Shown one piece after another: positions 4,995 through 62,275 of a stretch of DNA of 64,000 nucleotides (the first letter of the stretch is position 1; every line of letters starts with the position of its first letter). Both the position numbers and the translations under genes were made by a program. The stretch covers positions 124,001-188,000 of the forward strand of contig KE560959.1 in NCBI GenBank assembly GCA_000442015.1. The letters run 5' to 3'. Source of the DNA: Rozella allomycis CSF55 (lineage: Eukaryota). A model generated the notes under the pieces. That model saw only the letters and a list, made by a program, of their open reading frames with translations. It was not told the origin of the DNA and made no database searches.

Positions 4995-6462
4995 ATGCGT
5001 AATACAAAATCCTCTCTGGCAGATACATTTATAGTTTCATCTGCAAATTCATCTCGTGCTTTTTTAAACGTTTCCGAGTCTCCTGGAGCTCAGGGGGAGT
5101 CTTTTGACACCACGACCCTAGGGAAAAATTATGAAGAATCTGTAAGTACAACAGCTTTAAATGCTGGTCAAATTAATGATGTTGAAAAACAGCCGCAAGT
5201 AATACTTCGAGAAAAAACACCAACAGGGTCTTTTGTCTCATGTTCAACTAACCTGTTAAATACTATTTTAGGCACAGGTCTTGTGACATTGGCATCTACA
5301 ATGAATGTAATAGGTATAATACCCGGCTCATGTTTAATATTGTTGTTTGCCATATTTTCTGGATTTGGTTTACATTTGCTTACAATTTCAGCTAGCAAGG
5401 TTGGCCGAACATCTTCTTTCTTCACTATTTCAAAAATAACATATCCTAAAATGGGCCTTTTATTTGATATTGCAATAGCTGTTAAATGTTATGGTGTTGC
5501 TACAGGTTATTTAATCATTGTCAAGAAGCTATTTTCGCGTATTTTATTAGAAGGGCTTTCATATGAACAGGGATTTTTCACTGGACAGAAATTTATATTG
5601 ACGATATCAATGTGTATTGCCATTCCACTTGCTTTACTACGTCGTTTGGACTCTTTAAAATACACTAGCTACCTTTCCATGTTGGCTATATTTTACTTAT
5701 TGATTCTTGTTGTTGTATTGTTTTTTCGTTCATTTGAATCTTCCTATGTAGTGCAGCCTAACTTATTTCCCTCATCTGAACAGAGTATTTTCACCATGCT
5801 AAAGAATCTTTCAATTATTATATTTGCTTTTACATGTCACCAAAATCTTTTTGCAGTTTACAATGAAAAAAGAAATAACAAAGTCTCTTCCATTAACAAA
5901 GTGATTACCTTTTCAATTTCCACTGCTTCTTGTTTTTACTGGGTAATTGGTATTCTTAGTTACTTGACTCTTTTAAAGCAACCAGATGGTAAAGTTAGCG
6001 ATAATATATTAGAATCATGTAATTGTTATGAGTTTAGTTAAATTAGATGAGAGTAATATGGCGGTAATTGTGGCCCAGTTTGCTTATGGTTTACTGACTT
6101 TGTTTTCGTATCCTCTGCAAGTGCATCCTTGTAGAAATTCGCTCGAGAAAGTTTTTCCAATTAGTAACGAAACCAGACTGAAGTATCCAAAAACTATTTT
6201 CTATGGTATTTCTGGTGTCATAATTTTAGCCACATTCTTTACGGCCTTTTTCGTTGATGAATTAGGATTAGTTTTAGCTGTTGTTGGATCCACTGGCTCT
6301 GTTACATTATGTTATATTCTGCCGTCACTTTTCTATGTAAAGTTAACAGAAAATGAGGGGTGGCATACTAAAAGGATTCTCGCGGCAGCTTTGGGTGCTA
6401 TTGGTATCATTGTGATGTGTCTGTGCTTACCCTCTGCTCTAGTGTCAAGTGCAGGTCATTAA
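4995..6462 (+). CDS. Amino acid transporter, Aa_trans/AVT family
   Basis: NLLNTILGTG, FAFTCHQN, SYPLQVHPCR, GSTGSV..YILP motifs; many hydrophobic helices; one short intron near 6019-6047. Confidence 0.88.
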
Positions 6463-15471: not shown

Positions 15472-15975
15472 TTAAGAGAACAATGCTAATGCGACTATTA
15501 CTGCGATTCCAGTCAATTGGTACTTTAAAGTTGAAGATTCGCTTTCAGATAGCAATGAATCATTTAAGGAAGTGCTGTTATTTCCAGTGCCTTCAATGGG
15601 TTCCATATTAGGACTTTCGCTTCCTGTGTCATGGGCTGATGCTGCGTCTTGAGGTCCATCAGGTTGAAGTTTGCTGGGATCTTTCTTTGAACTCTCTGTT
15701 TCTTCTGAATGCTCATTTCCAGTTTCATTTAGGCCTTTCAAGGCATCGCTTTTCTTTTCACCCGAGCTTGAGTGTTGTCCTTCGTGTTGAGAAGGATTTT
15801 CAGTTCCGTATTGCGATGGGTTTTCATTTCCATACTGCGACGGATTCTCACTTCCATATTGTGAAGGATTTTCTTCATATTGGGATGGATTTTCACTTCC
15901 ATATTGAGATGGGTTTTCTTCATATTGGGAAGGATGTTCTTCGTATTGAGATGGATGTTCATCGGCTTGTTTAGA
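15472..15975 (-). CDS. C-terminal half of a repeat-rich surface protein (ENPSQY repeats, hydrophobic C-tail)
   Basis: Open frame from the N at 15976; eight PSQ-containing repeat units; ends LTGIAVIVALALFS* like a GPI signal or membrane anchor. Confidence 0.7.
   Translation of the reverse strand, partial: SKQADEHPSQYEEHPSQYEENPSQYGSENPSQYEENPSQYGSENPSQYGNENPSQYGTENPSQHEGQHSSSGEKKSDALKGLNETGNEHSEETESSKKDPSKLQPDGPQDAASAHDTGSESPNMEPIEGTGNNSTSLNDSLLSESESSTLKYQLTGIAVIVALALFS
15783..15963 (-). repeat. Coding tandem repeat, 21/24-nt units (E[E/GS]-[H/N]PSQY)
   Basis: Direct repeats visible in DNA and protein. Confidence 0.85.
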
Positions 15976-16353
15976 NCGTATGGGAGTCATTGGCTTTAGG
16001 CTATTATTAACTGGGAAAAACTCCGCCGAGGCCGTATGCTTACTGACACTTTTGGCCTGCATTATCCAATTTTTAATTTTTGTATTCTCCTCGACCTTCG
16101 GATACAATCTTCTATTAAACAAAGGCCTCTTTCAAACCATATGGTTCTACCATCTCCTCTCTAGCAATTCTAATATCATCAATATACAGCATTTCTCCGA
16201 CAGTCTTAATATCATCAACCAAAACTGTGACGGTCTTGTCAGCCTCTGCCAGGACTATTCTTTCTAACTTCAACTCTCTCTGACATTAGACAGGGGTTTG
16301 TTAACNCTTAGCTTTGGGGACCGTACAATGAAAGAATAGAATTGCTCAGCCAC

Positions 16354-16409
16354 GGACAGACAGACAGACACACAGACACACAGACACACAGACACACAGA
16401 CACACAGAC
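16354..16409. repeat. Microsatellite (GACA)n then (CAGACACA)n on a small N-bounded contig
   Basis: ggacagacagacagacacacagacacacagacacacagacacacagacacacagac between Ns at 16306 and 16501. Confidence 0.9.
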
Positions 16410-19349: not shown

Positions 19350-21959
19350 ATGAAAAAATTTAAGAAAGAGGAATCTGAGCATTTAGATTCGAGTTTATTT
19401 TCATACTATAGAAAATGTGATGTTGTTTGTGATAGTGGAATTTGCACTGTTTCGTATTTGGGCAAATCTTTTTTCATTACGACTGTTGTTGGGAAATCGT
19501 TTCATGTTTATGAAGGATCCAAGCAGAAATTATTGTTTATTAGCAAACCGTTGAAGAATAAAATATCGGCCATGGCGTCTGTAGATGAGCATACGTTGGT
19601 AGCTTCCGGCAATGAGTTTCTTGTGTATTCTAGGGCTGATGTTGTTTCGTGCATTACTTTGGATGAGAGTATTGATGAAATATTGGTGTTGGGAGATTAT
19701 GTTTCATTGTTATCTAAAATGGAGAATTCACTGACTGTTGTNATGGAGAATGCACTGACTGTTGTACATTGGAGGCAAGATAAACAAGTTTTGGAAGATA
19801 TGAATGTAGTTTCAAAAATAAAGTTTGATAAAGAATTCCAAGCTTGTTGTCATATTCACCCAGATACTTATTTTAATAAAGTTTTAGTAGGTGGTAGGGA
19901 TGGACGAATTCAACTGTGGAATGTTAAGACAAGGTAATTAATGATAGTGGAATTGAAAAGAACATTAATATACGAGTTTCAAAAATACGAAAGAACTATT
20001 TGTAGTCTGGTTCAAACAACTGCACTGGATGTAGCAGCTGTTGGGTACATGGATGGCACAATTCAATTGATTCATTTAAAGAAAAATGTGCTTGTTGGTG
20101 AATATAAGCAACATGGTTCTGTCAATGCAATATCATTTAGAGAGTCTGATGTGAACATGCACATGATTTCAGTTTCAACAAATGGCCATATAACAGTTTG
20201 GGATTTAAATGAAATGAAGCAAGTTTACTTGAAAGACACTGGATTGGATTCTATTGGATTTTGTTCTTACATTAGAGGAACCAATTTAATTCTTGTAGCG
20301 TCAAAATTGAATGCGATTCAAGTAAATTCTAGTTTATGAATAAATGAAAGGTTTGGTCGTTTAACGATACGAGAAAAGATTTAACAATTTTGAAAGAGAG
20401 AAAAGGATTGTCAAGTTCAGCTTCATTTGTTAAATTTGTTGATAATAATTTGGTTTACACTGGAAATGAAAAGGGAGAATTGGAGCTCGTTCATATTTCA
20501 AGAGATTCTCACAATAGAATTTTCTCTAAAGGAAAAGAAAAGAATCTTAGCCTTTCAACGTTTTCTATTCCATCCACTTTACATAATGAGTGGGGTTGTT
20601 TAGCTGGATCAAGTTTAAAAGACAATAGCATCTCCATTTGGTCTCAACATAATAAAATTGTTTCAAAAGTCTATTTTGATAAACAAAAGGAAACAATTTC
20701 TGCTCTGGAAACTTCTCTTTGCTCAAACTTTTGTGCTTATGGAACATCTAAAGGAAGTTTGGTCTTGTTCAACCTCCAATCCAGTATTGTAAGGTGTAGA
20801 ATTCAAGGTATGTTTAACCAAAATTTATGAATTAGCACACAATGAAATAATCACTGGTGTTTTTATTGACGATACAAACCAATATGTTGGAACTGCTTCA
20901 CTTGATGGATTTGTGAAAATTTGGAAATTTAAAGACTTTTCTCTTTTGCATTCTATAAACATTGGTGCTTCAATTAATCTTATTTATAAGAAAAGAGAAT
21001 CATCTTTTCTTGCTGTATCTTGCGATGATTGTTCTATAAAGTTGATTGACTTGGATAATAAAAAAGTGGTGAGAACGTTCCTGGGTCCAAAGAAGCCAGT
21101 ATTGGCATTGGAAATATCAAACGATAATCGTCTTCTTTTAGCGTCTTCAACAGATTCCACTGTTTGTGTCTTTAACATTCCAAGTGGAAAGCAAGTTGAC
21201 AAGATGGTTTGCGAATTCACTCCAAAATCCATTTCAATTAGCCCTAACGATCTTTGCTTTTCTATTTCATATGTTGATGATTTGGGATTTCATCTTTTTA
21301 TGAACAAATCATTTTTTGAATCGGTTTCAACTTCATTACCTGCCATCGAATTCAATAACGCGGCATCCAGTGCAGAATTAATAGTTTCTGAAAATGAATC
21401 CAAATGGAGATCTTTAATAAATTTAGATACAATTAAAAAAAGAAACACGCCAAAAGAACCTCCAAAGAAACCAGAAAACGCTCCATTCTTTCTTTCGTCA
21501 GCTTCTTCAGTTCCTGTTATAGAAGATAAATCTGAGGGAGTTCCAATCTTATCTGATGAATTTCAATTCGATTATTTATTTTCATTAAGTCCAAGTAATT
21601 ATTTTAAAGTGTATTCAATAGATGATTTGATTAAAGAATTAGAAAATATGCCAATTTCACGCATTGACCTATTAATTATTCTTCTAGGGGAAAACAGAAT
21701 GAAATTTTTAAAAGCATTAATTCCTTGTTTAACCTCCAAGGCATCGTTTGATATGATCATGTCCATCTTGTCTAGATTTTTAGCGGTAAGTTTTGATATC
21801 TATAAAATATTTTAGATTCACGGCGAAAATATATTCCAAGATGCTGCAGATGAAGATCTAGATATTTTAGAAACAGTTTTATCTTCATTGGAAGGATCAT
21901 GGAACGCCAACGAAAATACCTTTCAAAGCTGTCTAAACTTGCTTTCAATGTTATGTTAA
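19350..21959 (+). CDS. UTP21: U3 snoRNA-associated WD40 protein Utp21/WDR36
   Basis: HPDTYFNKVLVG, LDVAAVGYMDGTI, WRSLINLDTIKKRNTPKEPPKKPENAPFFL; several short introns. Confidence 0.9.
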
Positions 21960-22988: not shown

Positions 22989-23061
22989 TAGCAGCGCCAA
23001 GTTTCGATCAAGGGACCTCTGAGTTATGAGCCCAGCGCTCTTCCAACTGAGCTACGCTGCT
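22989..23061 (-). tRNA. Initiator tRNA-Met (CAT)
   Basis: AGCAGCGTAGCTCAGTTGGAAGAGCGCTGGGCTCATAACTCAGAGGTCCCTTGATCGAAACTTGGCGCTGCTA: A1-U72 pair, CAT anticodon, ATCGAAA T-loop, followed by a T5 Pol III terminator. Confidence 0.9.
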
Positions 23062-25302: not shown

Positions 25303-25706
25303 TTATTCAGCATCTACAGTTTCAGTTTGCAAACCTAATAACAAAAAAAACCAAAACGCTACCTTTAAAGCTAGCAACGGGAACCCAAGAGACATAAGTG
25401 TAGAACTGATCTTTCGAGTCTTCTTCTTCTGATCTCATTCTAGCCATGCGAACGCGGATACGAAGAGGAACGTTTTTGATACCGCGGGACCAGAGAGCGG
25501 TATTTAAGCTAGGATCAATGCGAACTTGTTTAGTTTTCATTTCCTTTTGAGCGAAAGCCTTTACAACCTTGATAGCACCTGGCGCACGTTTTTTGAATGA
25601 TCTGATTAAAGAGAAAAATGTGGGAATACTTGCCATGCAAATATTTGTGCATGTGGATTGTGTATTCGCGAGTAACTGGTTCAAGAGGCTTTTTTTCAAT
25701 GGCCAT
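25303..25706 (-). CDS. RPL31: 60S ribosomal protein eL31
   Basis: VTREYTIHMHK..SFKKRAPGAIK..VRIDPSLN..WSRGIKNVP.RIRVR; two introns. Confidence 0.95.
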
Positions 25707-25991
25707 TTTCGCAAGGGTCAGAATTTTCTTTCGGAAATTTCAAAATGGAAGTGAAAAATGGGAGTGAGAAAAGGAATTAAAGGAAAGAGCGTGAGAATGT
25801 AAGAAGATGTAAGATATGAATAAATTAAGTAGAAATATTTGAAACATCGGATAAAAAACTTACGTGAAAATTACAAGTCTCGCAGTGCTCGTTAAATCGG
25901 ACGGGGAGTTAATTATGGAATATAAACAAATTTCTTCACAATACAACTATTTTTTATGCTTTTATGTTAAATCGGATAATATTTTTAGTTC

Positions 25992-28900
25992 TCACAAACT
26001 TCTACNGGAAGCAAGAACGATAGCATCTTCAGAGTCATTAGAATCATCATCTGAGAGTGTGTAATTGACTTTTTTCTTGTTTCTTTTAGCTTTTGGTGAA
26101 AAGAAGAGAGAGGAAGCATTTCCAGAGTCTTTAAGAGCAGATGGTTTCTTTGGAGTGTCTGAAGGTTTTGATTTCTTTGGAGGAGAGCTATCAATTGAAT
26201 CTTCAGAGTCGGATATTCTGACTTGTTTTCTGCTAGAGAAGAATGAACTCTTTGCAGTAGCTGAAGCGCTTTTAGTACTAGTAGCAGTTGACGCACTTTT
26301 AGCAGTAGTAGCACTCTTAGCAGTAGAAGCACTCTTAGTAGTAGTCTTCTTTGCAGTACTCTTAGTGCTCTTCGTAGCTGTAGTACCAGTGTCTCCTTTT
26401 ATAGTGTCTCCTTTAATGGTGTCTTCTTTTATAGTGTCTTCTTTCATAGTATCACTCCTCTTCACATTACCCTTCTTCGCAGTACCCTTCTTCTTATCAG
26501 AAGTCTTTGGCTTTGAAATGGAAACTCTTTCAATCTTCTTTGCGAGTGAATTAACATTAGAAGAACCCAAAGCCAAATTTAATCTTTCTTCTAGACTGAG
26601 ATCTAAGCTGTAAGCGCTAGTTAGTTTATTATCAACAGGAGATGACCTAGACTCATCTTCATCATCAACGTCGTCATCGTCATCGTTAAGGTCGTCATCG
26701 TCAAGGACATCACTTTCCTCTTCTTCCTCTTTTTCATCTTCTTCATCTTCAACAATTTCTTGAACAACTTCTTCTTTAATGACTTGTTTCTTTTTTCTAG
26801 ATTTCTTTTCTTGAATGTTTAATTTAAAAGTGCTTGTAGTTTCAATTCCTTTATTGAGATTCTATCAGTAGAATAGATTTATTGTTACATTGTATTCTTG
26901 AACAAAATCATCTAAATCATCCAACCATAAATCCTTTGGTGTTTTTTCTAATAGAATTGACAATTCTTTTTCCTTGTTATTCTTTTCATTAATCAACTTT
27001 TCAACCTTTTCTTTTGTTAAATTCAACAATGGCATATTAAGCAAATAATCGAACCCTTTGATTAAAGTGATTTGAGTGAGAGTTACCTATGATTAATGTG
27101 GTTTAAAGCATTATTACCTAATGATTAATGTGGTTTAANTTTTCATCTTCTTCATCTTCAACAATTTCTTGAACAACTTCTTCTTTAATGACTTGTTTCT
27201 TTTTTCTAGATTTCTTTTCTTGAATGTTTAATTTAAAAGTGCTTGTAGTTTCAATTCCTTTATTGAGATTCTATCAGTAGAATAGATTTATTGTTACATT
27301 GTATTCTTGAACAAAATCATCTAAATCATCCAACCATAAATCCTTTGGTGTTTTTTCTAATAGAATTGACAATTCTTTTTCCTTGTTATTCTTTTCATTA
27401 ATCAACTTTTCAACCTTTTCTTTTGTTAAATTCAACAATGGCATATTAAGCAAATAATCGAACCCTTTGATTAATGTTTTGAGTGAGAGTTACCTAATGA
27501 TTAATGATTTAAAGCATTATTACCTATGATTACTAATACCTTCACTTATTACCTATGATTACTATAACCTTCACTGATTACCTTCCTTGTCATCCTTTTC
27601 ATAATCTTTGGATTGTAATTCCTTTTCAACATTAATCTTCAATTTATTCTTAATAACCAAAGTTTCATTAATCAATTCAAGAATAAATCTAGCCTTGTTT
27701 TCCAATCTAGACAGTTCTTTTAATAACTGATTAGAAAGATATTCTTTTCTCTTTTGATAAAAGATTAATCTTAGATTATAAAATTCTTTAATTATTTCTT
27801 CAACATTTAAATATTTCTTTAATCTTCCAAATGAATCAAAACAAACTAAATTCCCACAAGATAATGAAACACTCATTTTGAATTTCTTTTCTAATCCTTC
27901 CTTTTCAATTAAACTCAATTGTTCTCTTGTTAAATTGATCACAAATTTAATATTCTCATCCTTGTGGTATTCTTTAAATGAAAGAATTGTATTATTTTCA
28001 ATTAATGATTCTAAATATTCTTTATAATTTTGAGTCCAACATTTGATTGGCAATTCTGAGATTTCCAAACTAGTTTCATTAATCTTTTTAATGATTCCAT
28101 TTATTTTGTATTTATCTACATCTACTTGTTCTATAACCCCTTTAAACCCCTTGTACCATGGATGCATCTTTTCAATCTCTTTCCCATTAATCATTCTCTT
28201 TATATTCTCAACAAGATCAATTGGATTGTAATTAGGCACAAATGTACTCCATCCAGTCCCTATCCCTTCAGCTCCATTAATCAACGTCATGGGAATAATC
28301 GGTATATAATACTCGGGCTCTATATCCTGTCCATCTTCATTCAAATATTTCAACAAATTATCATCTTCTATTCTAAACAACTTTCTAGCCAATGGTGACA
28401 ACAATGTAAATATATATCTGGGGCTAGCATTATCCTTTCCTTTATGAATGTTAGATTATTGAATTACCTCCTTGAAATCTACTACCAAACTGTCCATTTG
28501 GCATCAACAAATTTATATTATTACTACCTTGATAGTAAAGAAATAAAGTGATTACCTTTAATGAGTTTCAAACAAAGTGATTACCTATTATGATATGCAT
28601 TTCAACTACTTTACCTTGATGAATTAAACTTCAACTACTTTACCTTGATGAATTAAACTCNATTAATAGTAAAGTAACAAAGTGATTACCTTGATGAATT
28701 AAACTTCAACTACTTTACCTTGATGAATTAAACTCTAATCACTTTACCTACAAAGTCTTGCGCCAAGTTGATAATCGTGCCACTAAGACTCACCTCCCCA
28801 TGATGATACGCTGTATGCTCACTCACATACCCAGACAACTGATTCACCTTCACTTCACTCTTCAAATTACGCTTGAAACACGCATAGATAATCTTTCTCT

Positions 28901-31900
28901 GTCCAGGCTTAAATCCATCAACCACACTCGGAATAGATCTAACATTATCTGCAACTGAAAATAATATCAATTCCTTGTTCACAAAATCTTCAACTTTAAT
29001 AGACTTTGTCTTGTGATCCATATACGTCCCTGGCTGGAACTTTCTCAACCACTCCTTTCTATCTTCAATCTTCTTCTTGCTAAACGCCATATCAACCATC
29101 TCTCTATCTCCTTCCTTTACTCCTGAAAATGGTATTCTATGTTCACTCATGGCCTTGAAATACTTGATAGCATCATCCTTTGTACTTGTTCCCAAACCCT
29201 ATTAAAGAGAGTGAAGGGTGAGATTACCTATTAAAGAGTTTAAAATTATTTTACCTATTATTTAATCTCATATCATGTTTTACCTAATATTTAATCTCTT
29301 AACTTACTTTACCTAGTATTTAATGTCTTAACTTACTTTACCTTGTAGTATTTGATTGTCCATCCTATAGTTAAGATTAACATGTCCACTTACCTTGCCC
29401 ATTGTTATTCTTACTCTTCCATTCTTCATACTCTGGAATTGTATAAAAACTTTCAACCTTGTTTCCTTTGGTACATTTCACTATCGGTGTAATAAATTCT
29501 TGTATAAACCCTGGTATCTTTAACAATGATGGCCAAAATTTATCAAACAAATTAATCAACAATCCCTTTATATGAGATCCATCATGATCCTAAATTGAAT
29601 TTAGTAATGCATGTTACCTATTGTTAATGCATTAGTTTAGGGTTACCTATTCTAAATGTACTATAATCATGCTTACCTATTGTTACTCTACTACAATTAT
29701 GCTTACCTATTGTTACTCNAACATTACCTATTATAGAGTTTAAACATGGCATTACCTATTATAGAGTTTAAAACTATTTTACCTAGTATTTAATGTCTTA
29801 ACATAATTTACCTTGTAGTATTTGATTGTCCATCCTATAGTTAAGATTAACATGTTCACTTACCTTGTCCATTGTTATTCTTACTCTTCCATTCTTCATA
29901 CTCTGGAATTGTATAAAAACTTTCAACCTTGTTTCCTTTGGTACATTTCACTATCGGTGTAATAAATTCTTGTATAAACCCTGGTATCTTTAACAATGAT
30001 GGCCAAAATTTATCAAACAAATTAATCAACAATCCCTTTATATGAGATCCATCATGATCCTAAATTGAAGTTAGTAATGCATGTTACCTAATTGTTAATC
30101 TACTACAATCATCGTTACCTATGGTTAATCTACTATAATCATGCTTACTTGATCAGTCATTATCATAACGTGCCCATATCGCAACTCACTCGCACTGGTA
30201 TAATTCTTGCCTTGCTGCAACCCTAAAATTCTTTTAATATTCTGAATTTCTTGATTCTCCAATATTTGCTTAGCAGATGCTTCTCTAACATTCAACAATT
30301 TCCCTCTCAATGGAAACACCCCAAAATAGTCTCTTCCAACTACAGACAACCCTTGCACTGCTAATGTCTTAGCTGAATCCCCTTCTGTCAATATCAATGT
30401 ACACTGCGATGAACTCTTCGTGCCAGCATAGTTCGCATCATCCAACTTTGGTATCCCACTAATCCTACTGGTCTTGTGCCCATCACTCTTCTTCAACATC
30501 TGATTCTGCTTCGCTTGCGCAACATTCAATATATTCTCAACAATCCCAGACTTCAACACCTTTCTCCACCTTCTTCAATCTTTACCTTTTTCATAAATTC
30601 TTCTCCAAGAATACATTTAGAACCAAACGACGATTGCTTCAATGTCATCGTCTCCTTTGTTTGCGAATCAAACGAGGGATTCTCTATCAAACAATTAATA
30701 AACAACGCCATCTGGTTCTTTATTTGAAATGGCTTCAGTGGGGCTGCCTTGTTCTTCTTCTTCGTCGCTTCAACCAACGCACCAACAATCTGATCAGCTA
30801 CATGCGCTACATGCGTTCCTCCCTTGCTAGTACAGATGGAATTCACGAACGATATCTAAACACTCCAACTCTGCATTCTTACTTGCTGGAATTGTCCCTC
30901 TGATATACAAAATCCAACCTCCCATCTGTCACTCTTTTCAAACAAAACAGTCGGCTTCACTCCATTCTCATCTTCCTTCACAAACTGATTCACATAGCTC
31001 TTAAAATCTTTAATCTTTATTCTCTCGCCATTCAAATAAACTTTCACATCCTTCACTACCCCAGCCATATCATACACTCGCTTCACAAACAACTTTTCTA
31101 CATCCTCATCAAACGTCTCCATTCCAAATCTCTTCAAATCTGGCTTAAACGTTATCTACTCATTCAAACTACCCATCTTTACCTTGGTAAAATCATCCTT
31201 GCTATAGTCTACAATCTTTGGCTGTCCAACTTCACTCATATTCTTCTTAAACACCTTTGCAGTCTCAGTTTCATTCTTACTTGTCTAAATTTCTTCTTTT
31301 TGCTAGAATCAGCAGTCTCAACAACAAACTCGGTAGAAAATATATTACACAACTTGGCGCCAAATCCATTTCTACCCCCAGTCACCTTTTTCTGCGAATC
31401 ATTATAATTAGAAGATGTCAACAAATGTCCAAATATCAACTCGGGCACATACACCTTTTCATCCGCATGAACCTCAATCGGTATCCCACGCCCATCATTC
31501 ATCACACTAATCACATTATTCTCTCTATCAATATCTACCCTTATCACCCCCATCCCAGGATCACGTTGCTACTACCACCCAAAAACAACTCTTACCTTGT
31601 TGTCAGCCGCATTCACCAGTATCTCATCAAAGATCTTATAAAATCCAGGCGTATACGTGATATTCTTATACACAAATTTTCCTTGCTCAACAATCCACAT
31701 CCCCTGGGTAATACTCTCCACTGACCCTATATACGTATCCGGACGCAGCAAAATATGCTCCAACTGTGTCTTTTTCTGATACACCTCCTCCACCGGTCGG
31801 TTGTCTCTTTTCTGCTGCAATGGCTTTTTCACACTCTTCTTCACAGGCTGTCTTATGCTTATCTTATTCTTACTGAAGCCGTAAACGATGACTCATAATC

Positions 31901-31906
31901 ACTCAT
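25992..31906 (-). CDS. TOP2: DNA topoisomerase II (assembly includes two duplicated exon blocks at N joins)
   Basis: YQKKTQLEHILLRPDTYIGS, GGRNGFGAK, TEGDSA, PLRGK, MTDQDHDGSH, YYKGLGTS, DGFKPGQRK, YHHGE, ASPRY, GIGTGWS. Confidence 0.97.
27140..27464. repeat. Direct duplicate of 26731-27055 (probable second haplotype at N join 27139)
   Basis: Apparently identical sequence at offset 409. Confidence 0.85.
27465..27581 (-). other. TOP2 intron made of 4 tandem unit introns (29+29+30+29 nt)
   Basis: Each unit GTAA...AG; removal joins DDKEG to FDYLLNMP. Confidence 0.9.
28528..28747 (-). other. TOP2 intron made of tandem unit introns (six complete 28-30 nt units plus two cut by the N at 28661)
   Basis: AG|GTAA junctions at unit spacing; removal joins QDFVG to SNNINLL. 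Confidence 0.88.
29199..29341 (-). other. TOP2 intron made of 5 tandem unit introns (29+29+29+27+29 nt)
   Basis: Removal joins IKYYK to GLGTS. Confidence 0.9.
29812..30059. repeat. Direct duplicate of 29342-29589 (probable second haplotype at N join 29719)
   Basis: Offset 470; two substitutions seen, one intronic and one synonymous. Confidence 0.85.
30060..30148 (-). other. TOP2 intron made of 3 tandem unit introns (30+31+28 nt)
   Basis: Removal joins MTDQ to DHDGSH. Confidence 0.9.
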
Positions 31907-32183
31907 TGTCGATTTGAGCGCCAAGTTTTTGCAAGGGTTTACAAACAGATTTTTAAAACCTGAATGGAATATCCTTCCAATAACACTCCTCTTCTTGAAT
32001 AAAATCATTCCAAAATATGCGACAAATGCAGTCACTTTGTACAGCCACTCAAAATTTAAATACACAAAATTGACTTTTCAAATATACGTAAATTAAAACA
32101 TTACTCGTTAATTTTTATTCTTATTTCTTATCTTATCCTTCAATCTTCATGTTAACAACCCCTGTCAAAACTTTTTTCCAAAT

Positions 32184-32772
32184 ATGCCACAAGACCAACA
32201 GCAAATTCCAGCAGATATCAAAGACGAAACTCTCGAAGAAGACAAGGAATTAGAAGCTATGAAATTACGCGTTAAAGAAATGGAAGAAGAAGCTGCCAAA
32301 CTTCGTGAAATGCAAGCTCAAGTGGAGCAGCAAATGAACATGTCTCTTGATTCTCGTAAATTTCATACCTTTAATTGTTCTAGTCGAGTCTAAAGAAGTA
32401 GTAGACAATCGCTCCATTTACGTCGGAAACGTACAGTTTATTCTGTGTTGAAATTAGGTTGACTATTCATCTACTCCAGAAGAATTACAAGCACATTTTC
32501 AAGCTTGCGGAACTATCAAAAGAGTCACCATCAATTGCGACAAGTTTACTGGGTCTCCAAAAGGATTTGCTTACGTGGAATTCGCTGACCCTGAACATGT
32601 TGCTAATGCTATGGCTCTAAATGAGTCACTTTTCAAAGGAAGACTTCTCAAAGTTTTGCCAAAGAGAACAAATATTCCAGGATTCAATAGAGGAAAATGG
32701 AGAGGTCGTGCAAGAGGCAGAGGTGGCTACAGAGGCCGTGGAAGAAGAGCAGCACATTTTGCCCCGTATTAA
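32184..32772 (+). CDS. PAB2: Nuclear poly(A)-binding protein PABPN1/Pab2
   Basis: [23 protein letters not shown] coiled coil, RRM ([18 protein letters not shown]), RG-rich tail ending FAPY. Confidence 0.93.
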
Positions 32773-40077: not shown

Positions 40078-43000
40078 TTAAAGATTTCTTGAAAATACTT
40101 GAGTTGATTCAATTTCTTTTTCCAGTTCTGAAATTTTGACATGTTGATCTGCCAACAATGATTCTGCTTTTGAAACTAGAAATGTAGCCACATTTGTTAG
40201 AGTATGATCAGGTCCATTATAAATGCTACAATTGTCGGCCATAATTTGCAAATCTTTAAGAAACGTGGATGCAGTGACGTGTTTGAAATTCTTTACTTCC
40301 TACATAAAGAACAAAAATTTAGAATACTTTTTTAATTGTCGAAAGATCTCTAGGTTGTTTTATTTTCAAGAGATAATCTTTGTAGATTTTGGTATCAACT
40401 GGATCTCTAAAAGCGAATGCTGCAGGGATAGCCATCAAAGTGTTTATAATGTCTTCAAAGATGAGAGACAATTCTGTTAAAGGTCTTTTTCTCTTTACAC
40501 CTTTAAAATTGTCTTCAACGTCAACAGCCAATTTCTTCTTTTTACTCAGTTTGGCCTTTTTAGATTTTCTATTAGATTTGTTAAATGAATATTACAGAGA
40601 ATTGCTTCTTGATATAACCGATTCATCATCATCAAAAAGCAAATCTTCAATAACGTTTCCAGTGTAATTTGGACAAACTTTGTTATTTCTGTTATGTCCA
40701 GTTTGACCACAACTGCTGCATCTAAGAATTGAAGATTTTTTCTTTCCTTCGTCTTGCTCTGTGTTATTGAATGGATTAACAAATGGACTTTTAAATTTGC
40801 ATAATCATTTTACTTTGAGTTTTCGTTTTTCGTGCCAATGCTTTTTCTTGAATTTAGTAATTGTTTTTGTCTAACGTAGGCGTTGATTACTTTGGGGTCT
40901 GTAACAACTTCACTTTCTGTTCTAACCATTCCATTTGCCATTTTATACTTTCAATAATAGTTAAAATATTTACATTTCTTTTTATTGTTAGTATTTTTGG
41001 TTTAGCTTCAAATTTAGAACTTTTTGATCCAAAACTGGCAATGGATGTGACGTCATCGTCAAAGTCAATTTCTTTTTTCTGAATTTCAAATTTTTGTCTA
41101 TTTATTTCATCTTCTTGCAAAAATTCTGGTTCATTTGTATTGCTGAGAGAATTTAGCTGGGCTTTCCAAATCTTGTTGATCTATTAAAGAATAAAAAGTA
41201 TCATACTTCCTCTTTATAAGCCATTCTTTGATCATTTAGCGATACTTTACTATCCCCTTCTCTTGAAGTTAATTGGCGTATTGATGATTTAACAAAACTG
41301 AAGCCTTCACCTTTTCCTGTAGGATCTCCGAATCCAGTCAGTTGCAGCATAGCTTTGTCTTGTGTGGCATTTATGAAATTTCTCGTAACCATCCATGGCG
41401 CCAATTTCACTTCATCATCTAGTGTTTCTTCTGCTTCTTCAGTATCAACAGCCAAATGCACATATCCAGAATCTTTTAATCGTTGCTGACCAGCAAGCAT
41501 GCTTTCATACAAACATGCCATTTCTGGATTTACTATTTTTCTCAATTCATCGTCACTTGGGATGACTGACCCTGGTTTTAAATACCAAGTGCCGCTTCCA
41601 CTTTTGCTTCTAGTTTCAGCGAAATCTTTTAGCCATTTTCTTATATTTGCTTCTGTAGTTTCTCTAAATAAACATGTTAGTTGTGGTAGTCTGAATGACT
41701 TTTCAGGGCTTTGACTCTTCTTTAACAATCTCCAGGCAGTGAATTGAACTCTGCTTTTTAAATACAGACTAACTTTGCGGGAATGAACGCTGGGAACTTC
41801 CATCAAGGGAAAAGTTTGACCAACCAAAAAGGAATGTTCAATATTCCTAATGTAGTGTCTTTGGCCTTCTTTGGAAGTACATCTAATTAATAAGAAATCA
41901 GAATATTTAAGAGGCTGTTCAAATATTGGAGCTCTAAATAGATTGTTATAAACACATTGAATAGTTTGACCAGGGTCTACATTACCAAAAGTGAAGAATG
42001 GAGAAGCATCAACATTTTCTAATATGACAGGTGAGCCAATTTCATTTTTAGGAATATTTAGATCAGCTTCTCCTTTTTTGCGATAGTAAGTGTTTATTAG
42101 AGTACCCATGCTTACATTCATAACGATTGGCGGGTATTCTTCAGAATATTCCAAGAGAACGAAATCACCGTCGTCTTTAACAGAAAGATCGTGAACGTTT
42201 TTAGGGATGTGAGAAGGAGATTCTTTCAAATGATGATTTTTGCTTTTAACAAAAGTTATTCTAGACCCTGCAACAAAGTCAAATGGAGGTCTGTGCCAAT
42301 TTCTCATCTCAGATCTTGTAAAGCATGTTTTGAACTATAAATGAAATAAAAATGAAAATACCAAGGCTGGCAATAACTTTAAAGCTGGATAAGAATGTTG
42401 AACGATGGATTGACCAAACGTGTGTCTTATTCTTCCTTTTGTCTTTGTTTCGTAGTAACGATCATTTGAAAGATTGAATTTGTCTAAACTTCCTTTGTAA
42501 GCTTGAAACATATTTTCTTGTTTCAAATCTTCTTGATTGACTCTCTCTGGCATATTCCGTGGTGGGTATTGCTGGTATGGAAGCAGCCCAGGATGTCCTT
42601 TGAAACACCAACAAATGTTTTACTTCTTGGGTCATGAAATTGTGGATTTTGTCTTCCAAATATTTCTTGAATTGTTGGAGTGTCATCAAACACATAAAAT
42701 GGATCATTTTTGTTCAAAATTAAATGAGATACAAAAAGTTTGGCAGGGGGTTGTTCATCATCCAAAATAATTCTCTCATCCCAATCACCAAACTCAAAAT
42801 CATAATTCTTTATTTTAGTACAAACTCTAATAATCAATTCATCCAACGAAGTTATCTTCTCTCTCCAAGTGTTCAAAAGAATCATCGTGATTTGTTTGAT
42901 TTGATTGCTATTCACGTAGCCAAATGAATTAGAATAAAGCCCTCTAAGGGAATTGGGATCATTCAGCTTCCCCCATTCAGTCCAATCCCAAACTATCCTT

Positions 43001-43852
43001 GACTCCCAATCATCCAGCTCTGTCGCCTTTTCTTTAATAATCTTCTCCACATATTCATACAGCCTTTTCTCTTCTTCCTGTGTCAACTCATTTCTCATCC
43101 TAAATCCAACTTCGGGCATAGGCTGTTTATCATTCATCTCTTCTATCACTGATTGGTAATGGTTGCTCATCATATTCTCCTCTGTGCTCTTTGAAAACTG
43201 CGCTCTAGATGCAATACTCTTAATGTCCATCACATTAGTCTTCTTAACTGAATTATATCTCTCAAGCAAAATCGGATTCTTTGCTAACTCTGCTTGATCT
43301 ACCACATACTCAAAATCATCACTACTCACTCCCTCAAGGGCTTCATAAACAAAAATACATTCTTTTTACCTTTAATAGATCTCATCTTTTTATAAACCCT
43401 TTGCTGCTCTTTAGATATCAACAATTCGGTAAATTTCACTGGCTTTCCTTTTTGAAATGACGGAAACATCGTTCGCATATCAACTTGTTCCTTCTTTTCC
43501 TTTTCAAGGACAATATTCTCTTCTTCCTTTACTACATCCATCTGGAAATCGTCAAACGCTAAATCAGGCTGCACGGAATCAACATAAACATCTTCTGCCA
43601 ACTCATCAATATCCTCAAAATCAACAGCCTCCACCCCAGGCTTCACTGTAAATGCATCCTCTCTACTATTCTTCTTTCCTCCAGCTTGTAAAATATCTCC
43701 AAACAAATTCGCTGGAAGGTTAGCCAAAGATTCTCTGATTTCCTTGAAAAACACATTTAAATCACACCTACCTCATCTAAAAAGTCGCCTTCTATATTCC
43801 CTCGTTCGTCTACATTGCCAAATATAAAAGATACGTCAATTCCTTGGCTCAT
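40078..43852 (-). CDS. TAF1: TFIID subunit Taf1 with zinc knuckle and one bromodomain
   Basis: IFGNVDERG (TAND), FNLSNDRYY, LLEYSEEYPP, LAPWMVTRNF, GDPTGKGEGFSF, CSSCGQTGH, FRDPVD..DYL bromodomain. Confidence 0.92.
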
Positions 43853-50270: not shown

Positions 50271-54847
<4,577 letters not shown>

Positions 54848-54880: not shown

Positions 54881-57493
54881 TTATTGATGTTTGTTCAAAG
54901 GATCTCCACTTTTAATCATTGTTGACGACAACATGGAACCTGACATTTTCGTATGCGCTGCTATTTTATTTTGCCATAACTCTAAAACATTGACCCATTG
55001 TTGATATTCTTCTTGAACAGAAAATGTAACATCATAGCGACAATTTTCCACAATAATACTAAGTGCAGAGGTTTTCGCATTCTTTTGAATAGAAAAGTTC
55101 TTAATGAATTTCAAAAACAAAGAATGATTTCCAATCCCAAATGCCTCAAGTTTACTAAATTCAGTATTTCTTCTTAATGACAGAAAATGTATTGCATTCG
55201 TGTTTGGATCGAGGGCCATTACCATGCGTGATGTCTCACTGAAAAATGAAAGGCTTTTCTTGACTCTTACAGACACGTCACTCGTTATCTTATACGTTTT
55301 CTTCAACTCTGAGTCATTCTTTACATCAGTACTTTTAACAGCGACAACCGTTCCACTTTGACCTACCGTTTTCTTATCATGCCGAGTAACATAAATGTTA
55401 TACATTTTATGAAGAAACATACATACAATATTGAAAAAAGCTATGTATGTGATTGAGAGTACTTTAACAAGAAAGGTAGAAGTAAAGCCTAAACTATTAG
55501 ATGTCAAAATGGGTATTGTGAATATCATTACAATCGTCACATTGTAAACTGATAAGGAAATAGCTTTGGTTTCTTGAAACTTTGATGGGATATCTCTTGT
55601 TTTAAACGCCATTATCAAATTTAATGCCAAAATTAAACCTCCATAGGTCAAAATCAATCCTAACATCACTTCCTGCACCATAGAGTTTGAGCTTCTGCAA
55701 GTCCAATAGTATTCTTTTGTGCTCAAGTACTTCATAACATGTGGTTTCGGCCTATCAATAATATTCCATACAAGAGCAAATAAAACGTTGGGTAATGTCA
55801 TCAGTATACCTACCAAAGATACTTTTTTGTCTGTCCACTTAGATCCTTCGCCCGAATTAATAACATAAAATAATCGATATAGCCGGACCATTTTAGCGAA
55901 ACTAAACGAATAAAACAAAGAGAAGGAAAGAGTAAGAAGAAATGTATCAGCTATGCAAAATGTGTCATTTGGCTTTCCCGTCATTATCAATAATTGTATG
56001 AAGCCTAACGCAAGTCCAAAAAGGAGCACATAGCTAATCTTTACACTTACGCGAACTATAACAGGATTTTTTCGATTTAGGGCATAAAATATGAAAACCA
56101 AAAGAACAACTACAATACCAACTGCACCAAGTAAAACTGAAAGCTTGCCAACCACAGTAGAAAAATCAGAATATAAGGCAACTTCATTAGGATCAATGTA
56201 GTCTTTTGGCTTTATAGTAGATCCACCTGGATAATATATTGGTCTAATCGAATAGATGGTGCCTTGACTCCACGTGGCGGCTTCAAACGCTTCTCCATTT
56301 AAAGTATTTAAGATGCTATAGTCGCCAATCCTCTCACCATTAATGTCCAAAACAACTTTGCCTGTAGGCGTTATTAAATTGTCAAACATGAAGGTCTGTG
56401 GGACAATAAAGTCCGACTTGTACGTACCATTAATTAGACCTTGAACTGTATATGTTGAGTTAGATTTTAACACACGATCAATACCATAAGCAATCAAATC
56501 CAAGCAAGATGCGAAACTCATTGTGTACAAAGGTGGTTCTGTAGACGTATTGTTGAGCCGGAATGGTGACGATGAATTAAGTATACCAGAGACCCACGAA
56601 GTTTTCATTTCTTCATAAATGGGCCCTTGCCCTTCTTTTGCTACAAAGAATATAACGTTCTCCATTAATTCCTTTTCCTCGTTCGTTAACATATAGTAAC
56701 CAGCATATACACCGTCAGATATTATCCAAACATAGCCTTGTTCTAAGAGCCCTTTTTTCTTTGCTTGCTTCAAAACAGCTAAACAATCTTGTAAATACCC
56801 GAAATATAAGATGATTTTTGCGTCTGAATCCTTGACTAAATTAACTACGTTTTTAGGACCGCTTTCCAAATCTGAAGCGTAAAACGAAGTTCTAACCAAA
56901 ATATTAATTTCGTATGATTTCGCACTCTCTGTTAACTGATTTGCTAATGCTTGGCCATAATCATCATTGGTTCCAATAATAGCGATAGATCTCCATCTAT
57001 TCTCATGCACATAACTGGCCATTGCCGATGCTTGAAAAAGATCGCTGGGTATTGTTCTGAAAAAGTTTGGATATTGTTCTTTATCAGCAAGCGCTGGACT
57101 AGTTGAGGATCCGCAACATACTGGAAGGTCGAAATTCTGGGTTATTAATGACGTTATTATGGTCAAATAGGAAAATGATGAGCCTATAATCGCAGTAACT
57201 CTATCATTGTTATTGAATTCAAGTAAGTCGTTGATCAGATTCTTACGTGAGAAACCACAGTTTCGGTACACGAATTCCAATTTCGTATTGTTATCTATTA
57301 GACTATCGATTTGATTGATTTGATCTAAACGAAGGTATATGGAGTTGATTGCATCTACACATTCGGGACAAATCTCTTCATCGAATGGCATAGACACTCC
57401 GATTTTTATAACATTATTTCCATTAGGGTTTAAACATTTGATTAATACCTGCAAAGATGAAAATAAAAGCAAAATTCTGGACAAGTAATGCAT
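54881..57493 (-). CDS. Class C (GABA-B-like) GPCR: Venus flytrap plus 7TM
   Basis: Signal-like MHYLSRILLLF; STSPALADKEQYPNFFRTIPSD, DDYGQ; YPGGSTIKPKD; FAKMVRLYRLF; AFKTRDIPSKFQETKAI; intronless. Confidence 0.92.
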   Translation of the reverse strand: MHYLSRILLLFSSLQVLIKCLNPNGNNVIKIGVSMPFDEEICPECVDAINSIYLRLDQINQIDSLIDNNTKLEFVYRNCGFSRKNLINDLLEFNNNDRVTAIIGSSFSYLTIITSLITQNFDLPVCCGSSTSPALADKEQYPNFFRTIPSDLFQASAMASYVHENRWRSIAIIGTNDDYGQALANQLTESAKSYEINILVRTSFYASDLESGPKNVVNLVKDSDAKIILYFGYLQDCLAVLKQAKKKGLLEQGYVWIISDGVYAGYYMLTNEEKELMENVIFFVAKEGQGPIYEEMKTSWVSGILNSSSPFRLNNTSTEPPLYTMSFASCLDLIAYGIDRVLKSNSTYTVQGLINGTYKSDFIVPQTFMFDNLITPTGKVVLDINGERIGDYSILNTLNGEAFEAATWSQGTIYSIRPIYYPGGSTIKPKDYIDPNEVALYSDFSTVVGKLSVLLGAVGIVVVLLVFIFYALNRKNPVIVRVSVKISYVLLFGLALGFIQLLIMTGKPNDTFCIADTFLLTLSFSLFYSFSFAKMVRLYRLFYVINSGEGSKWTDKKVSLVGILMTLPNVLFALVWNIIDRPKPHVMKYLSTKEYYWTCRSSNSMVQEVMLGLILTYGGLILALNLIMAFKTRDIPSKFQETKAISLSVYNVTIVMIFTIPILTSNSLGFTSTFLVKVLSITYIAFFNIVCMFLHKMYNIYVTRHDKKTVGQSGTVVAVKSTDVKNDSELKKTYKITSDVSVRVKKSLSFFSETSRMVMALDPNTNAIHFLSLRRNTEFSKLEAFGIGNHSLFLKFIKNFSIQKNAKTSALSIIVENCRYDVTFSVQEEYQQWVNVLELWQNKIAAHTKMSGSMLSSTMIKSGDPLNKHQ

Positions 57494-58054
57494 GATGTAA
57501 TCTCCAAAACAAATAAATCCCCTGGTTTCCGTTTGTTTATAATGACTAGCGTAAATTTTGTAAAATTTCATTCTAGCGGTTTTTCAATGACTTTATGGAA
57601 CAAAGCTTAAGTCAGAATTATAGAGTCATTGAAGAAGGCAATTTATTGCTTTGAATGATAAAGTTCGAAAGTTCTTGTACATCATTAAATTGTTCTTCAA
57701 CTGCGAAGGCTGGTAATCATTTTGGATGCTGTCATACTTGGCACGTTCTAGCCCCAAAATAGGCCATGAGTTTCAACGTGCATCTTTCATAATACCAATA
57801 ACTTTGCGGATATAAACATAAAATTGTAGATTTATTAATTGATTTATTTACTAGTTACTTGGGTATTTCGGAAGTTTCCTGATATCGCTCTTCATGTATT
57901 CTTCAAACATTTTTTTCTTATTTATTTGTTTTTTTNNNNNNNNNNNNNNNNNNNNNNNNNNNNNNNNNNNNNNNNNNNNNNNNNNNNNNNNNNNNNNNNN
58001 NNNNNNNNNNNNNNNNNNNNNNNNNNNNNNNNNNNNNNNNNNNNNNNNNNNNNN

Positions 58055-59668
58055 CTGACTTTAAATTTTGTCACTGCATCCTGGGCCGATATTACCTTGT
58101 ACAAAATTTTATCGACTATTTACTGCCATAACACATTCATCTATTGCGACAATAGAAAAAGGAGCGTTTTGGTCGTCAGAAAATAGCACTGCCTCACCAA
58201 AAAATTCCCCTTCTTGATATTGTTGAATAGGCACATTAAATAGCTTTCCATGCAATTCCAGTTTTTGCTTAACTTCACAAGTCCCTTTCCTAACTATGAG
58301 AATTTCAGTCATCGGTTTTCCTTCTTCCATAATGACTTCTTTTGGTTTGAATGATTTCCATTTTATAACTTCTACCACTGATTTAAGAGTCTCCTCTTGC
58401 CAATCCGCAAAATCTTTCAATTTTTTCATAAAGTTTATCTTTTCTTTACATTCATTATCATAAATAAACCTAAGTATTCTGTTATAATCGCTTTTTTCAA
58501 CTCGGGCAAACTGTGTGAACTCGCTTGTGACTACTGTCGCGGATCTAGGCTTATCATTAACCAGCGCCAAATCTCCAAAACCACTACCTGCTCCCAACGA
58601 CACTACAGTTTTAGAGTCTGATATAATCCCCGTTTTAGATATTTTAACATCCACTTTTCCTTTTAATATAACGTACCAACTTGTTCCAACATCGCCTTGC
58701 ATAAAAACAACAGTATCCGAGTTCATTTCATCAAAAAGCATTACGCTGCACAACTCTTGTAACACAAAAGATGATAATTTTTCAAACGCTTTTATATTTT
58801 TTACGTTTTTAAATAACTTGCGGCGATCGACTTTGGTCCTTTCATGAGGCTCCTTTTTCAATAAGTTAACAGTTAGATCGTGGTTGTAGCCATTCTCATT
58901 TTTCTCTTTTCTCATTTCAGGTGGTACATATTTTATTATTTTCAGTTCCCTGATTGCTTTAGGAGCAACTTTTTTAAATGGCTGTTTTGGAGCAGCTAAA
59001 ATTTTGTCAGGCTGATATGGAACGGAGTTTTGTTTACAAAATAGTTTCATCCATTCTAATACATTCTTTTCCGTTAATATTTCGTCACTTTTATGTTTGT
59101 TGAGTGGTCTAAAAGCATGGTCTACACTTTTGCCAAAATACGCGCGCCTTAAAGATTGTGTAGTAATAGGCCGGTCTATTACTTGAGCTATTGTGTTGGG
59201 TCTTGACTGAAATTCAATGTTGTTCATAGATTCTAGAGTAATAGGTCTTGACGAAAAAGAATGAGGTATAATTTCTCCCGTATTCTTTGAAGCTACTTCT
59301 TTTATAAGTTTAAAAAATTCATTGTGCTTTGAAATCCGGGTGTGAGTGTCTCCTAGCTCGTATGAATTCTCTTTAGAATATTGGACAACCTTTTGATAAT
59401 CTACCACATGTGACACTTTCTTTGTTGGATGATTCAGTAACAAGGGATAAGAATTTGAACATTGTTCGGCTTTTTCTCGATTTGCTATGCCTGATTGAAT
59501 TCTTTTAGTGGCGGTTTTTGTCAATCTGTGGGCTGGTAAAGAAATTATATGTTTTGCGTGAAATATTCTTTCGCTTGAATGGCCTTGACTATTTTTCCCG
59601 CTTTTGGATCTGAAATAAGCATTCTTAATTTCATAATCTCTCAGATGCTCCCTCAAGCAACTGTCCAT
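58055..59668 (-). CDS. Cyclic nucleotide-binding domain protein (two CNB domains), 3' end lost in gap
   Basis: VFMQGDVGTSWYVILKGKV..GFGDLALVNDKPRSATV; second CNB IMEEG..FFGE. Confidence 0.8.
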
Positions 59669-59717
59669 ATCGGGAGTAAGTGAAAGCTAAAAATAAACTT
59701 GCAAAAGATTTAATAAT

Positions 59718-62275
<2,558 letters not shown>

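Follow-up and report, generated by a model that had tools for sequence, protein, structure and literature searches.

The window analysed here, a stretch of 64,000 nucleotides from Rozella allomycis CSF55 (assembly GCA_000442015.1, contig KE560959.1, positions 124,001 to 188,000 of the forward strand), contains on its minus strand one single-copy gene of DNA topoisomerase II (Top2). Four of the 13 intron sites of this gene are occupied by tandem arrays of 3 to at least 5 intron-sized units, and such arrays are unusual in themselves. Parts of the gene are present twice in the assembled sequence. These second copies are unmerged overlapping contig ends and not a genomic exon duplication, and the two versions most likely represent different homologous chromosomes in an isolate reported to be heterozygous and triploid. 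The explanation as a whole, that is one gene, a contig-overlap artefact and arrays varying between chromosome copies, is considered probable.

The Top2 gene and its intron arrays

The Top2 model was built by counting each duplicated block once and cutting out all the arrays whole. The resulting frame of 1407 residues had no internal stops and was collinear with all three homologues tested, with identities of 52.6–53.9% over 1360–1499 alignment columns; the three homologues could be aligned along the entire Top2 region. The protein search with the 294-aa Top2 exon resulted in thousands of Top2 matches, the best of which was 57% identical. Since the removal of whole arrays together with the single use of the blocks yields an intact frame, the arrays are intronic. 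The nine remaining intron sites hold ordinary single introns.

In arrays A, C and D, 12 units were tested for retention, and each of the 12 would cause a premature stop; the same was determined for the ordinary Top2 introns (9/9). The arrays must be missing from the mRNA. The original prediction had regarded the arrays as a possible route to the gain of micro-exons, which is not supported, given the stops in all the tested units.

The units are arranged head to tail, start with GTAA, end with AG and tile the sites from exon to exon with no spare bases. Every one of the 27 complete units is 27–31 nt long, and wherever two units meet in arrays A, C and D, or in either part of array B, the AG of one unit is juxtaposed to the GTAA of the next (AG/GTAA). 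With a period of 27–31 nt and 3 to at least 5 units, the arrays fit the criterion of a minisatellite or variable number tandem repeat, head-to-tail units of 10–100 nt. The units diverge from each other by 4–30%; the intron size and both ends are nevertheless kept in all 27.

The arrays were located by scanning both strands of the window for chains of GTAA...AG units of 24–34 nt. No calls were obtained on the plus strand and 11 on the minus strand, 10 of them within 27056–30148. The eleventh consisted of two units at 5885–5939 on the minus strand, opposite a plus strand gene. In 30 mononucleotide shuffles, the mean number of chain calls per window was 1.27 and the maximum 4, both strands included.

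Several origins and properties of the arrays were considered and set aside. Units of the same site had a mean identity of 0.71 (85 pairs) and units of different sites one of 0.66 (293 pairs), a gap too slight to claim a spread of units among the four sites. The searches of the window with the 27 unit queries gave only chance matches of 10–15 nt outside 27000–30200 (best E 0.004), and a dispersed element was rejected as no unit copies were found elsewhere in the window. The local similarity scores between the arrays and the flanking exons, 7–16, were within the shuffled range (95th percentile 14–20); an origin by exon-derived duplication was discarded, the similarity being no better than in the shuffled controls. 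RNA folding of five array segments resulted in z values from -2.0 to +0.45, with array A alone marginal (5 of 200 shuffles folded equally well), and RNA structure was not retained as a feature of the arrays. Inverted repeats were absent inside the arrays, the two pairs found in 27000–30200 being both exonic, and the Rfam scan of the window gave no array match. In array B, the 5' ends of some units are mutually reverse complementary over about 10 nt; the folding z of this array was 0.18.

The third-position G+C of Top2 was 0.36–0.56 in the exons upstream of array D and 0.14–0.30 downstream of it, the exceptions downstream being the exon 28748–29198 (0.43) and the 23-nt micro-exon. All four arrays are situated in the A+T-richer 3' part of the gene.

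Splicing of the arrays

Short introns were determined in the window in the genes at 25320–25720, 32100–32770 and 40081–43742, and in Top2 (25992–31906). The 13 ordinary introns defined by eye, nine in Top2, two in a PABPN1-like gene (28 and 27 nt) and two in RPL31 (28 and 28 nt), were all 26–29 nt long. The annotated model of TAF1 (1140 aa) matched the window exactly in 10 segments in order, separated by nine gaps of 18–37 nt with a median of 27 nt; the TAF1 exon 41204–42334 matches a protein named as R. allomycis CSF55 with 100% identity, and the window was taken to be of this species on that ground. Among the 22 intron-like gaps of the window none was longer than 37 nt. For R. allomycis, the only mention found in print is a passing one in the accessible part of one paper (PMC6349667), where the S23 gene is said to have two putative introns, each about 30 nt long, and the word "intron" is absent from another (PMC5701793). 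Ultrashort introns have been described in other organisms, with no tandem arrays in the accessible parts of the reports (PMC13644364, PMC10245619, PMC13685798). No account of tandem arrays of whole ultrashort introns was found in the literature as covered by open-access main texts.

The arrays may be true tandem introns separated by zero-length exons, removed singly by a spliceosome that has become adjusted to intron lengths near 27 nt, and varying in number and order among the two or three homologues of one isolate. This proposal is tentative, and we give it somewhat less than an even chance. If true, it would mean the birth and death of whole introns by tandem duplication, seen as a standing polymorphism in a deep-branching fungus. 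A different possibility, which we hold doubtful, is that each array is spliced as one long intron of 89–220 nt from the first donor to the last acceptor, the inner GTAA and AG being passive; on this view, a short intron was duplicated and grew into a minisatellite. Both routes yield one and the same mRNA, so the intact frame does not discriminate between them, and the TAF1 gap of about 37 nt indicates that the intron length is not strictly fixed. However, an intron of 89–143 nt would be far outside the range of the ordinary introns and of the gaps given above, and the preservation of the intron size and of both ends in all the complete units, despite their divergence, is also at odds with passive inner sites. 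Judged from these lengths, the narrow range of the ordinary introns would favour the removal of the arrays unit by unit rather than whole.

Second copies at the contig joins

The window contains nine single Ns and two N runs. Three of the single Ns (27139, 28661 and 29719) mark precisely the places where one copy ends and the other begins. These Ns went unmentioned in the original prediction. At 27139, the right-hand sequence restarts at the point matching 26731. At 29719, the left side already spans array C and the exon block and stops inside array D, and the right side begins inside array C, crosses the exon block and enters array D. The N at 28661 has an identical stretch of 50 nt on either side (28611–28660 and 28686–28735). 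The flank-overlap scores at 27139, 28661 and 29719 were 372, 50 and 312, respectively, compared with a maximum of 19 at 154 control positions. In the same order, the right-hand match began at a distance of 0, 24 and 58 nt from the N, and the left-hand match ended 11, 0 and 42 nt short of it; these dovetail offsets fall inside the diverged arrays. All six contig ends are located in repeats, five in the intron arrays and the sixth (27140) in a 9-nt coding microsatellite.

The blocks themselves are nearly the same in both copies: 29342–29589 and 29812–30059 differ at 2 of 248 positions, one intronic and one synonymous, and 26731–27055 and 27140–27464 at none of 325, in agreement with the roughly two substitutions noticed originally. 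The homologue residues 580–664 and about 1149–1204 are covered twice by the window. The pieces joined across 29719 and 28661 form chimeric units of 21 and 46 nt, outside the 27–31 nt range of the complete units.

A single N commonly denotes a scaffolder join of zero or negative estimated distance; for the present assembly this meaning was inferred from the window alone. As the copies abut single Ns and their flanks dovetail, the second copies are shown to be unmerged overlapping contig ends. Artefactual exon duplications of this kind would introduce errors into every model of the Top2 gene. The searches with the 294-aa and 67-aa Top2 exons gave no 100% match among the best 120 hits each, and the gene may for this reason be absent or wrongly modelled in the public protein sets.

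Altogether four of the nine single Ns have duplicated flanks. The fourth, at 19742, has a 23-nt direct duplicate with one mismatch on its two sides (19719–19765), which is in frame and repeats 8 residues inside a WDR36/Utp21-like gene; it looks like another unmerged overlap. The flanks of the Ns at 15976, 16306, 16501, 24587 and 26006 are without duplication. The N at 26006 is in the last Top2 exon, and those at 16306 and 16501 flank an 8-nt microsatellite at 16356–16409.

Origin of the two versions

The arrays of the two versions are not the same. The positions and unit lengths previously given for array D (three units at 30060–30148, at least five, one of them partial, at 29590–29718) were reproduced, as were the difference of the array C copy at 29720–29811 (29, 27, 28 nt and a partial unit) from the complete array C and the 31-nt units, in place of 30 and 29 nt, of the array A copy at 27056–27138. 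The two comparable unit pairs of array A measured 31 and 30 nt and 31 and 29 nt, with 90% identity. The matched units of arrays C and D were 87–96% identical and differed by substitutions. In array C, the right copy passes from a unit like the left unit 1 directly to units like the left unit 4, and in array D the left copy has one unit type which the right copy lacks. All the complete variant units have retained the intron size and both ends, the ends being a requirement of the scan. A change of the arrays by whole splice-competent units alone, as claimed originally, is not supported, as the pairs of array A differ by 1–2 nt and the matched units of arrays C and D carry substitutions. A difference in unit number, also proposed, was seen between the two assembled versions of array D (3 compared with at least 4.4), the one array that allows a count; for A as well as C, a contig end truncates one of the copies.

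The proposal that the copies are two haplotypes was borne out in its first part, two assembled versions of one locus, by the Ns and the dovetailing; the haplotype status itself is plausible from the differences resembling single-nucleotide polymorphisms (SNPs) and from the reported triploidy. SNP-like differences in or near unique sequence were determined at 29386, 29398 and 29600, the last being a clean substitution in the last unit of array D. By their nature, intronic and in a synonymous Gly codon, 29386 and 29398 look like neutral polymorphisms. The duplicate with one mismatch around the N at 19742 is also counted in favour of haplotypes. In the accessible part of Ahrendt et al. 2018 (PMC6784888), the k-mer and allele-frequency patterns of R. 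allomycis are given as triploid, and the SNPs of single cells match those of the isolate, indicating heterozygosity within cells. The accessible part of PMC9457484 contains nothing on Rozella ploidy. Different homologous chromosomes are the likeliest source of the two versions because of the two substitutions in 248 unique nt and the reported heterozygous triploid isolate.

Several points weigh against this reading of variable intron arrays on different homologues. The GTAA and AG ends of the units are imposed by the scan itself, and the independent features are that the units tile without gaps and that they cluster in a single gene. The 325-nt block is identical in its two copies, which needs a locally low heterozygosity and equally fits a gap-filler writing it twice. 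The interior units are 77–87% identical and some of them unmatched, compared with 99–100% for the flanks and 90–96% for the exon-adjacent units; this interior divergence requires either very fast array turnover or mis-assembly. No part of an assembly deserves less trust than contig ends that lie in repeats. The allelic origin, moreover, is drawn from the assembled sequence and the published ploidy.

Some of these points would be explained if each site had one array structure only and the differences were errors of assembly or gap filling, with reads mis-threaded through near-identical units and each contig end extended into the repeat from its own side. This is an unlikely explanation. All the differences other than the three substitutions are indeed inside the arrays and near contig ends, the identical 325-nt block looks as if one template had been written twice, and at the left end of array A the preceding unit type recurs, in the manner of a looping extension. 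However, the three substitutions are clean and are situated in unique sequence or adjoining it, the truncated copies consist of mutually different units instead of exact loops, and the isolate is reported as heterozygous in the part of PMC6784888 referred to above.

A genome truly carrying tandem duplications of the exon blocks, the Ns being single unknown bases, is very unlikely: at 27139 there is no donor and the read-through stop would remove the C-terminal third of the tail, the units spanning the Ns have lengths of 21 and 46 nt instead of 27–31 nt, the copies begin and end at the Ns in dovetail geometry, and none of the three homologues aligned to the window carries the segments twice. 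On the other side, the frame stays open when the 29342–29589 duplicate is kept (1480 aa without a stop), and there the frame alone is insufficient for the single-copy reading; the Top2 model of Synchytrium endobioticum, another early-diverging fungus, also has the homologous segment twice, which may be a like artefact. In this model (P0241, 1000 aa), residues 584–649 and 824–889 both match 29389–29589 of the window with 72.7% identity each.

Proposed mechanism

According to the mechanism proposed here, an ancestral short intron would have been duplicated in place, giving a tandem array. Slippage or unequal exchange at the repeated AG/GTAA junctions could then add or remove units, and the arrays would behave as minisatellites, with point changes and small indels building up within the units. 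Any number of units would be tolerated, as each has its own donor and acceptor and could be spliced out. The units might go singly, or the outer donor might be joined to an inner or the outer acceptor; every route would lead to the same mRNA. The assembler did not manage to merge the sequences across the arrays, and ends overlapping by about 50 to 530 bases were set consecutively with a single N, which produced the apparent second copies.

Other features of the window

The coordinates of the Top2 features are presented in Table 1. The window has about 34% G+C and is gene-dense. The tRNA gene at 22989–23061 on the minus strand was the sole Rfam match. Coding tandem repeats were found at 15780–15961 (periods of 21–45 nt) and 26262–26493 (periods of 15–27 nt), the latter within the Ser/Thr/Ala/Lys-rich C-terminal tail of Top2. 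The neighbouring genes, at 51511–54000 (plus strand), 54884–57583 (minus strand) and 58112–61164 (minus strand), include a class C G protein-coupled receptor (ANF receptor and 7tm_3), a PH domain of an MRCK-like kinase, a cyclic-nucleotide-binding protein and a WW-HECT ligase.

Table 1. Features of the Top2 gene, its introns and the contig joins (positions in the window).
Feature	Position	Strand	Description
DNA topoisomerase II gene (Top2)	25992–31906	minus	15 exons, 4224 nt, 1407 aa after de-duplication
Unique block, left-hand copy	26731–27055	minus	identical to 27140–27464
Array A, second copy, cut by contig end	27056–27138	minus	21-nt piece and two 31-nt units
Single N, contig join	27139		exon side without donor; read-through hits stop after 150 nt
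Unique block, right-hand copy	27140–27464	minus	exon, 27-nt intron, start of last exon
Ordinary intron	27271–27297; second copy 26862–26888	minus	27 nt
Array A, complete copy	27465–27581	minus	phase 1; 4 units: 29, 29, 30, 29 nt
Ordinary intron	28440–28467	minus	28 nt
Array B (DFV-G/SNN site), split by N 28661	28528–28747	minus	phase 1; right side: 2 units and 28-nt piece; left side: 17-nt piece and 4 units
Single N, contig join in array B	28661		pieces across it form 46-nt chimeric unit
Array C (between YYK and GLG), complete copy	29199–29341	minus	phase 0; 5 units: 29, 29, 29, 27, 29 nt
Unique block, left-hand copy of 29812–30059	29342–29589	minus	two differences: 29386 in the intron, 29398 in a Gly codon (synonymous)
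Array D, second copy, cut at 5' side by contig end	29590–29718	minus	12-nt piece and units of 30, 30, 29, 28 nt
Single N, contig join	29719		pieces across it form 21-nt chimeric unit
Array C, second copy, cut at 3' side by contig end	29720–29811	minus	units of 29, 27, 28 nt and 8-nt piece
Unique block, right-hand copy	29812–30059	minus	196-nt exon, 29-nt intron, 23-nt micro-exon
Ordinary intron	29835–29863; second copy 29365–29393	minus	29 nt
Array D (exons ending MTDQ and starting DHDG), complete copy	30060–30148	minus	phase 0; units of 30, 31, 28 nt
Ordinary intron	30560–30585	minus	26 nt
Ordinary intron	30856–30882	minus	27 nt
Ordinary intron	31156–31182	minus	27 nt
Ordinary intron	31255–31280	minus	26 nt
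Ordinary intron	31569–31595	minus	27 nt
Ordinary intron	31848–31873	minus	26 nt

Comparison with known systems

In draft assemblies, false tandem duplications arise at gaps with contig ends on both sides that are allelic or overlap and were left unmerged. The Top2 duplicates resemble them, as they abut a gap, dovetail, are 99–100% identical in unique sequence and come from an organism reported to be heterozygous. In contrast to the usual false duplications, the Top2 breaks are all in intron-sized arrays, so the contig ends also report the variation of the arrays.

Where new introns come from is an old open question, and few intermediates have been observed. The comparisons with published systems which follow refer to the accessible parts of the cited papers. 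The closest published idea is that of dual-specific AG/GT sites, followed by the zero-nucleotide recursive sites of Drosophila. In the human UBC and VCX3A genes, dual-specific AG/GT sites are located in tandem repeats (Duan et al. 2024, PMC10809524), and for VCX3A an insertion polymorphism of one intron copy is described (PMC10809524). The Top2 arrays share with them the AG/GT unit boundaries, each potentially an acceptor and a donor, and the tolerance, presumed in Top2, of expansion by splicing out the extra copies. In UBC and VCX3A, however, the unit is a coding monomer or a long repeat and the introns of the genome are long, whereas the Top2 unit is a whole non-coding ultrashort intron, and the use of its inner sites is predicted. 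At the ratchet points of Drosophila (bioRxiv 10.1101/006163), an acceptor and a donor are likewise juxtaposed around a zero-nucleotide exon and the donor is regenerated stepwise; these points split introns of very large size and do not repeat one another in tandem, and in Top2 the stepwise removal is only putative.

In the model of intron gain from AGGT segments (PMC3265369, PMC4974935, PMC2891723), tandem duplication makes new donor-acceptor pairs as in the Top2 arrays. The intron of that model is, however, a duplicated exon sequence, whereas the Top2 arrays multiply whole introns at an existing site, with no similarity to the flanking exons above the shuffled controls. Introners and introner-like elements (PMC3609843, PMC4457414) are also multiplying introns, but they are longer and dispersed over many genes; the Top2 units are without copies outside 27000–30200 in the window. 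The introns of this organism are so short and uniform that each additional unit equals a complete intron. Should the two versions be alleles, whole introns would be gained and lost at four sites of this one gene on a population time scale.

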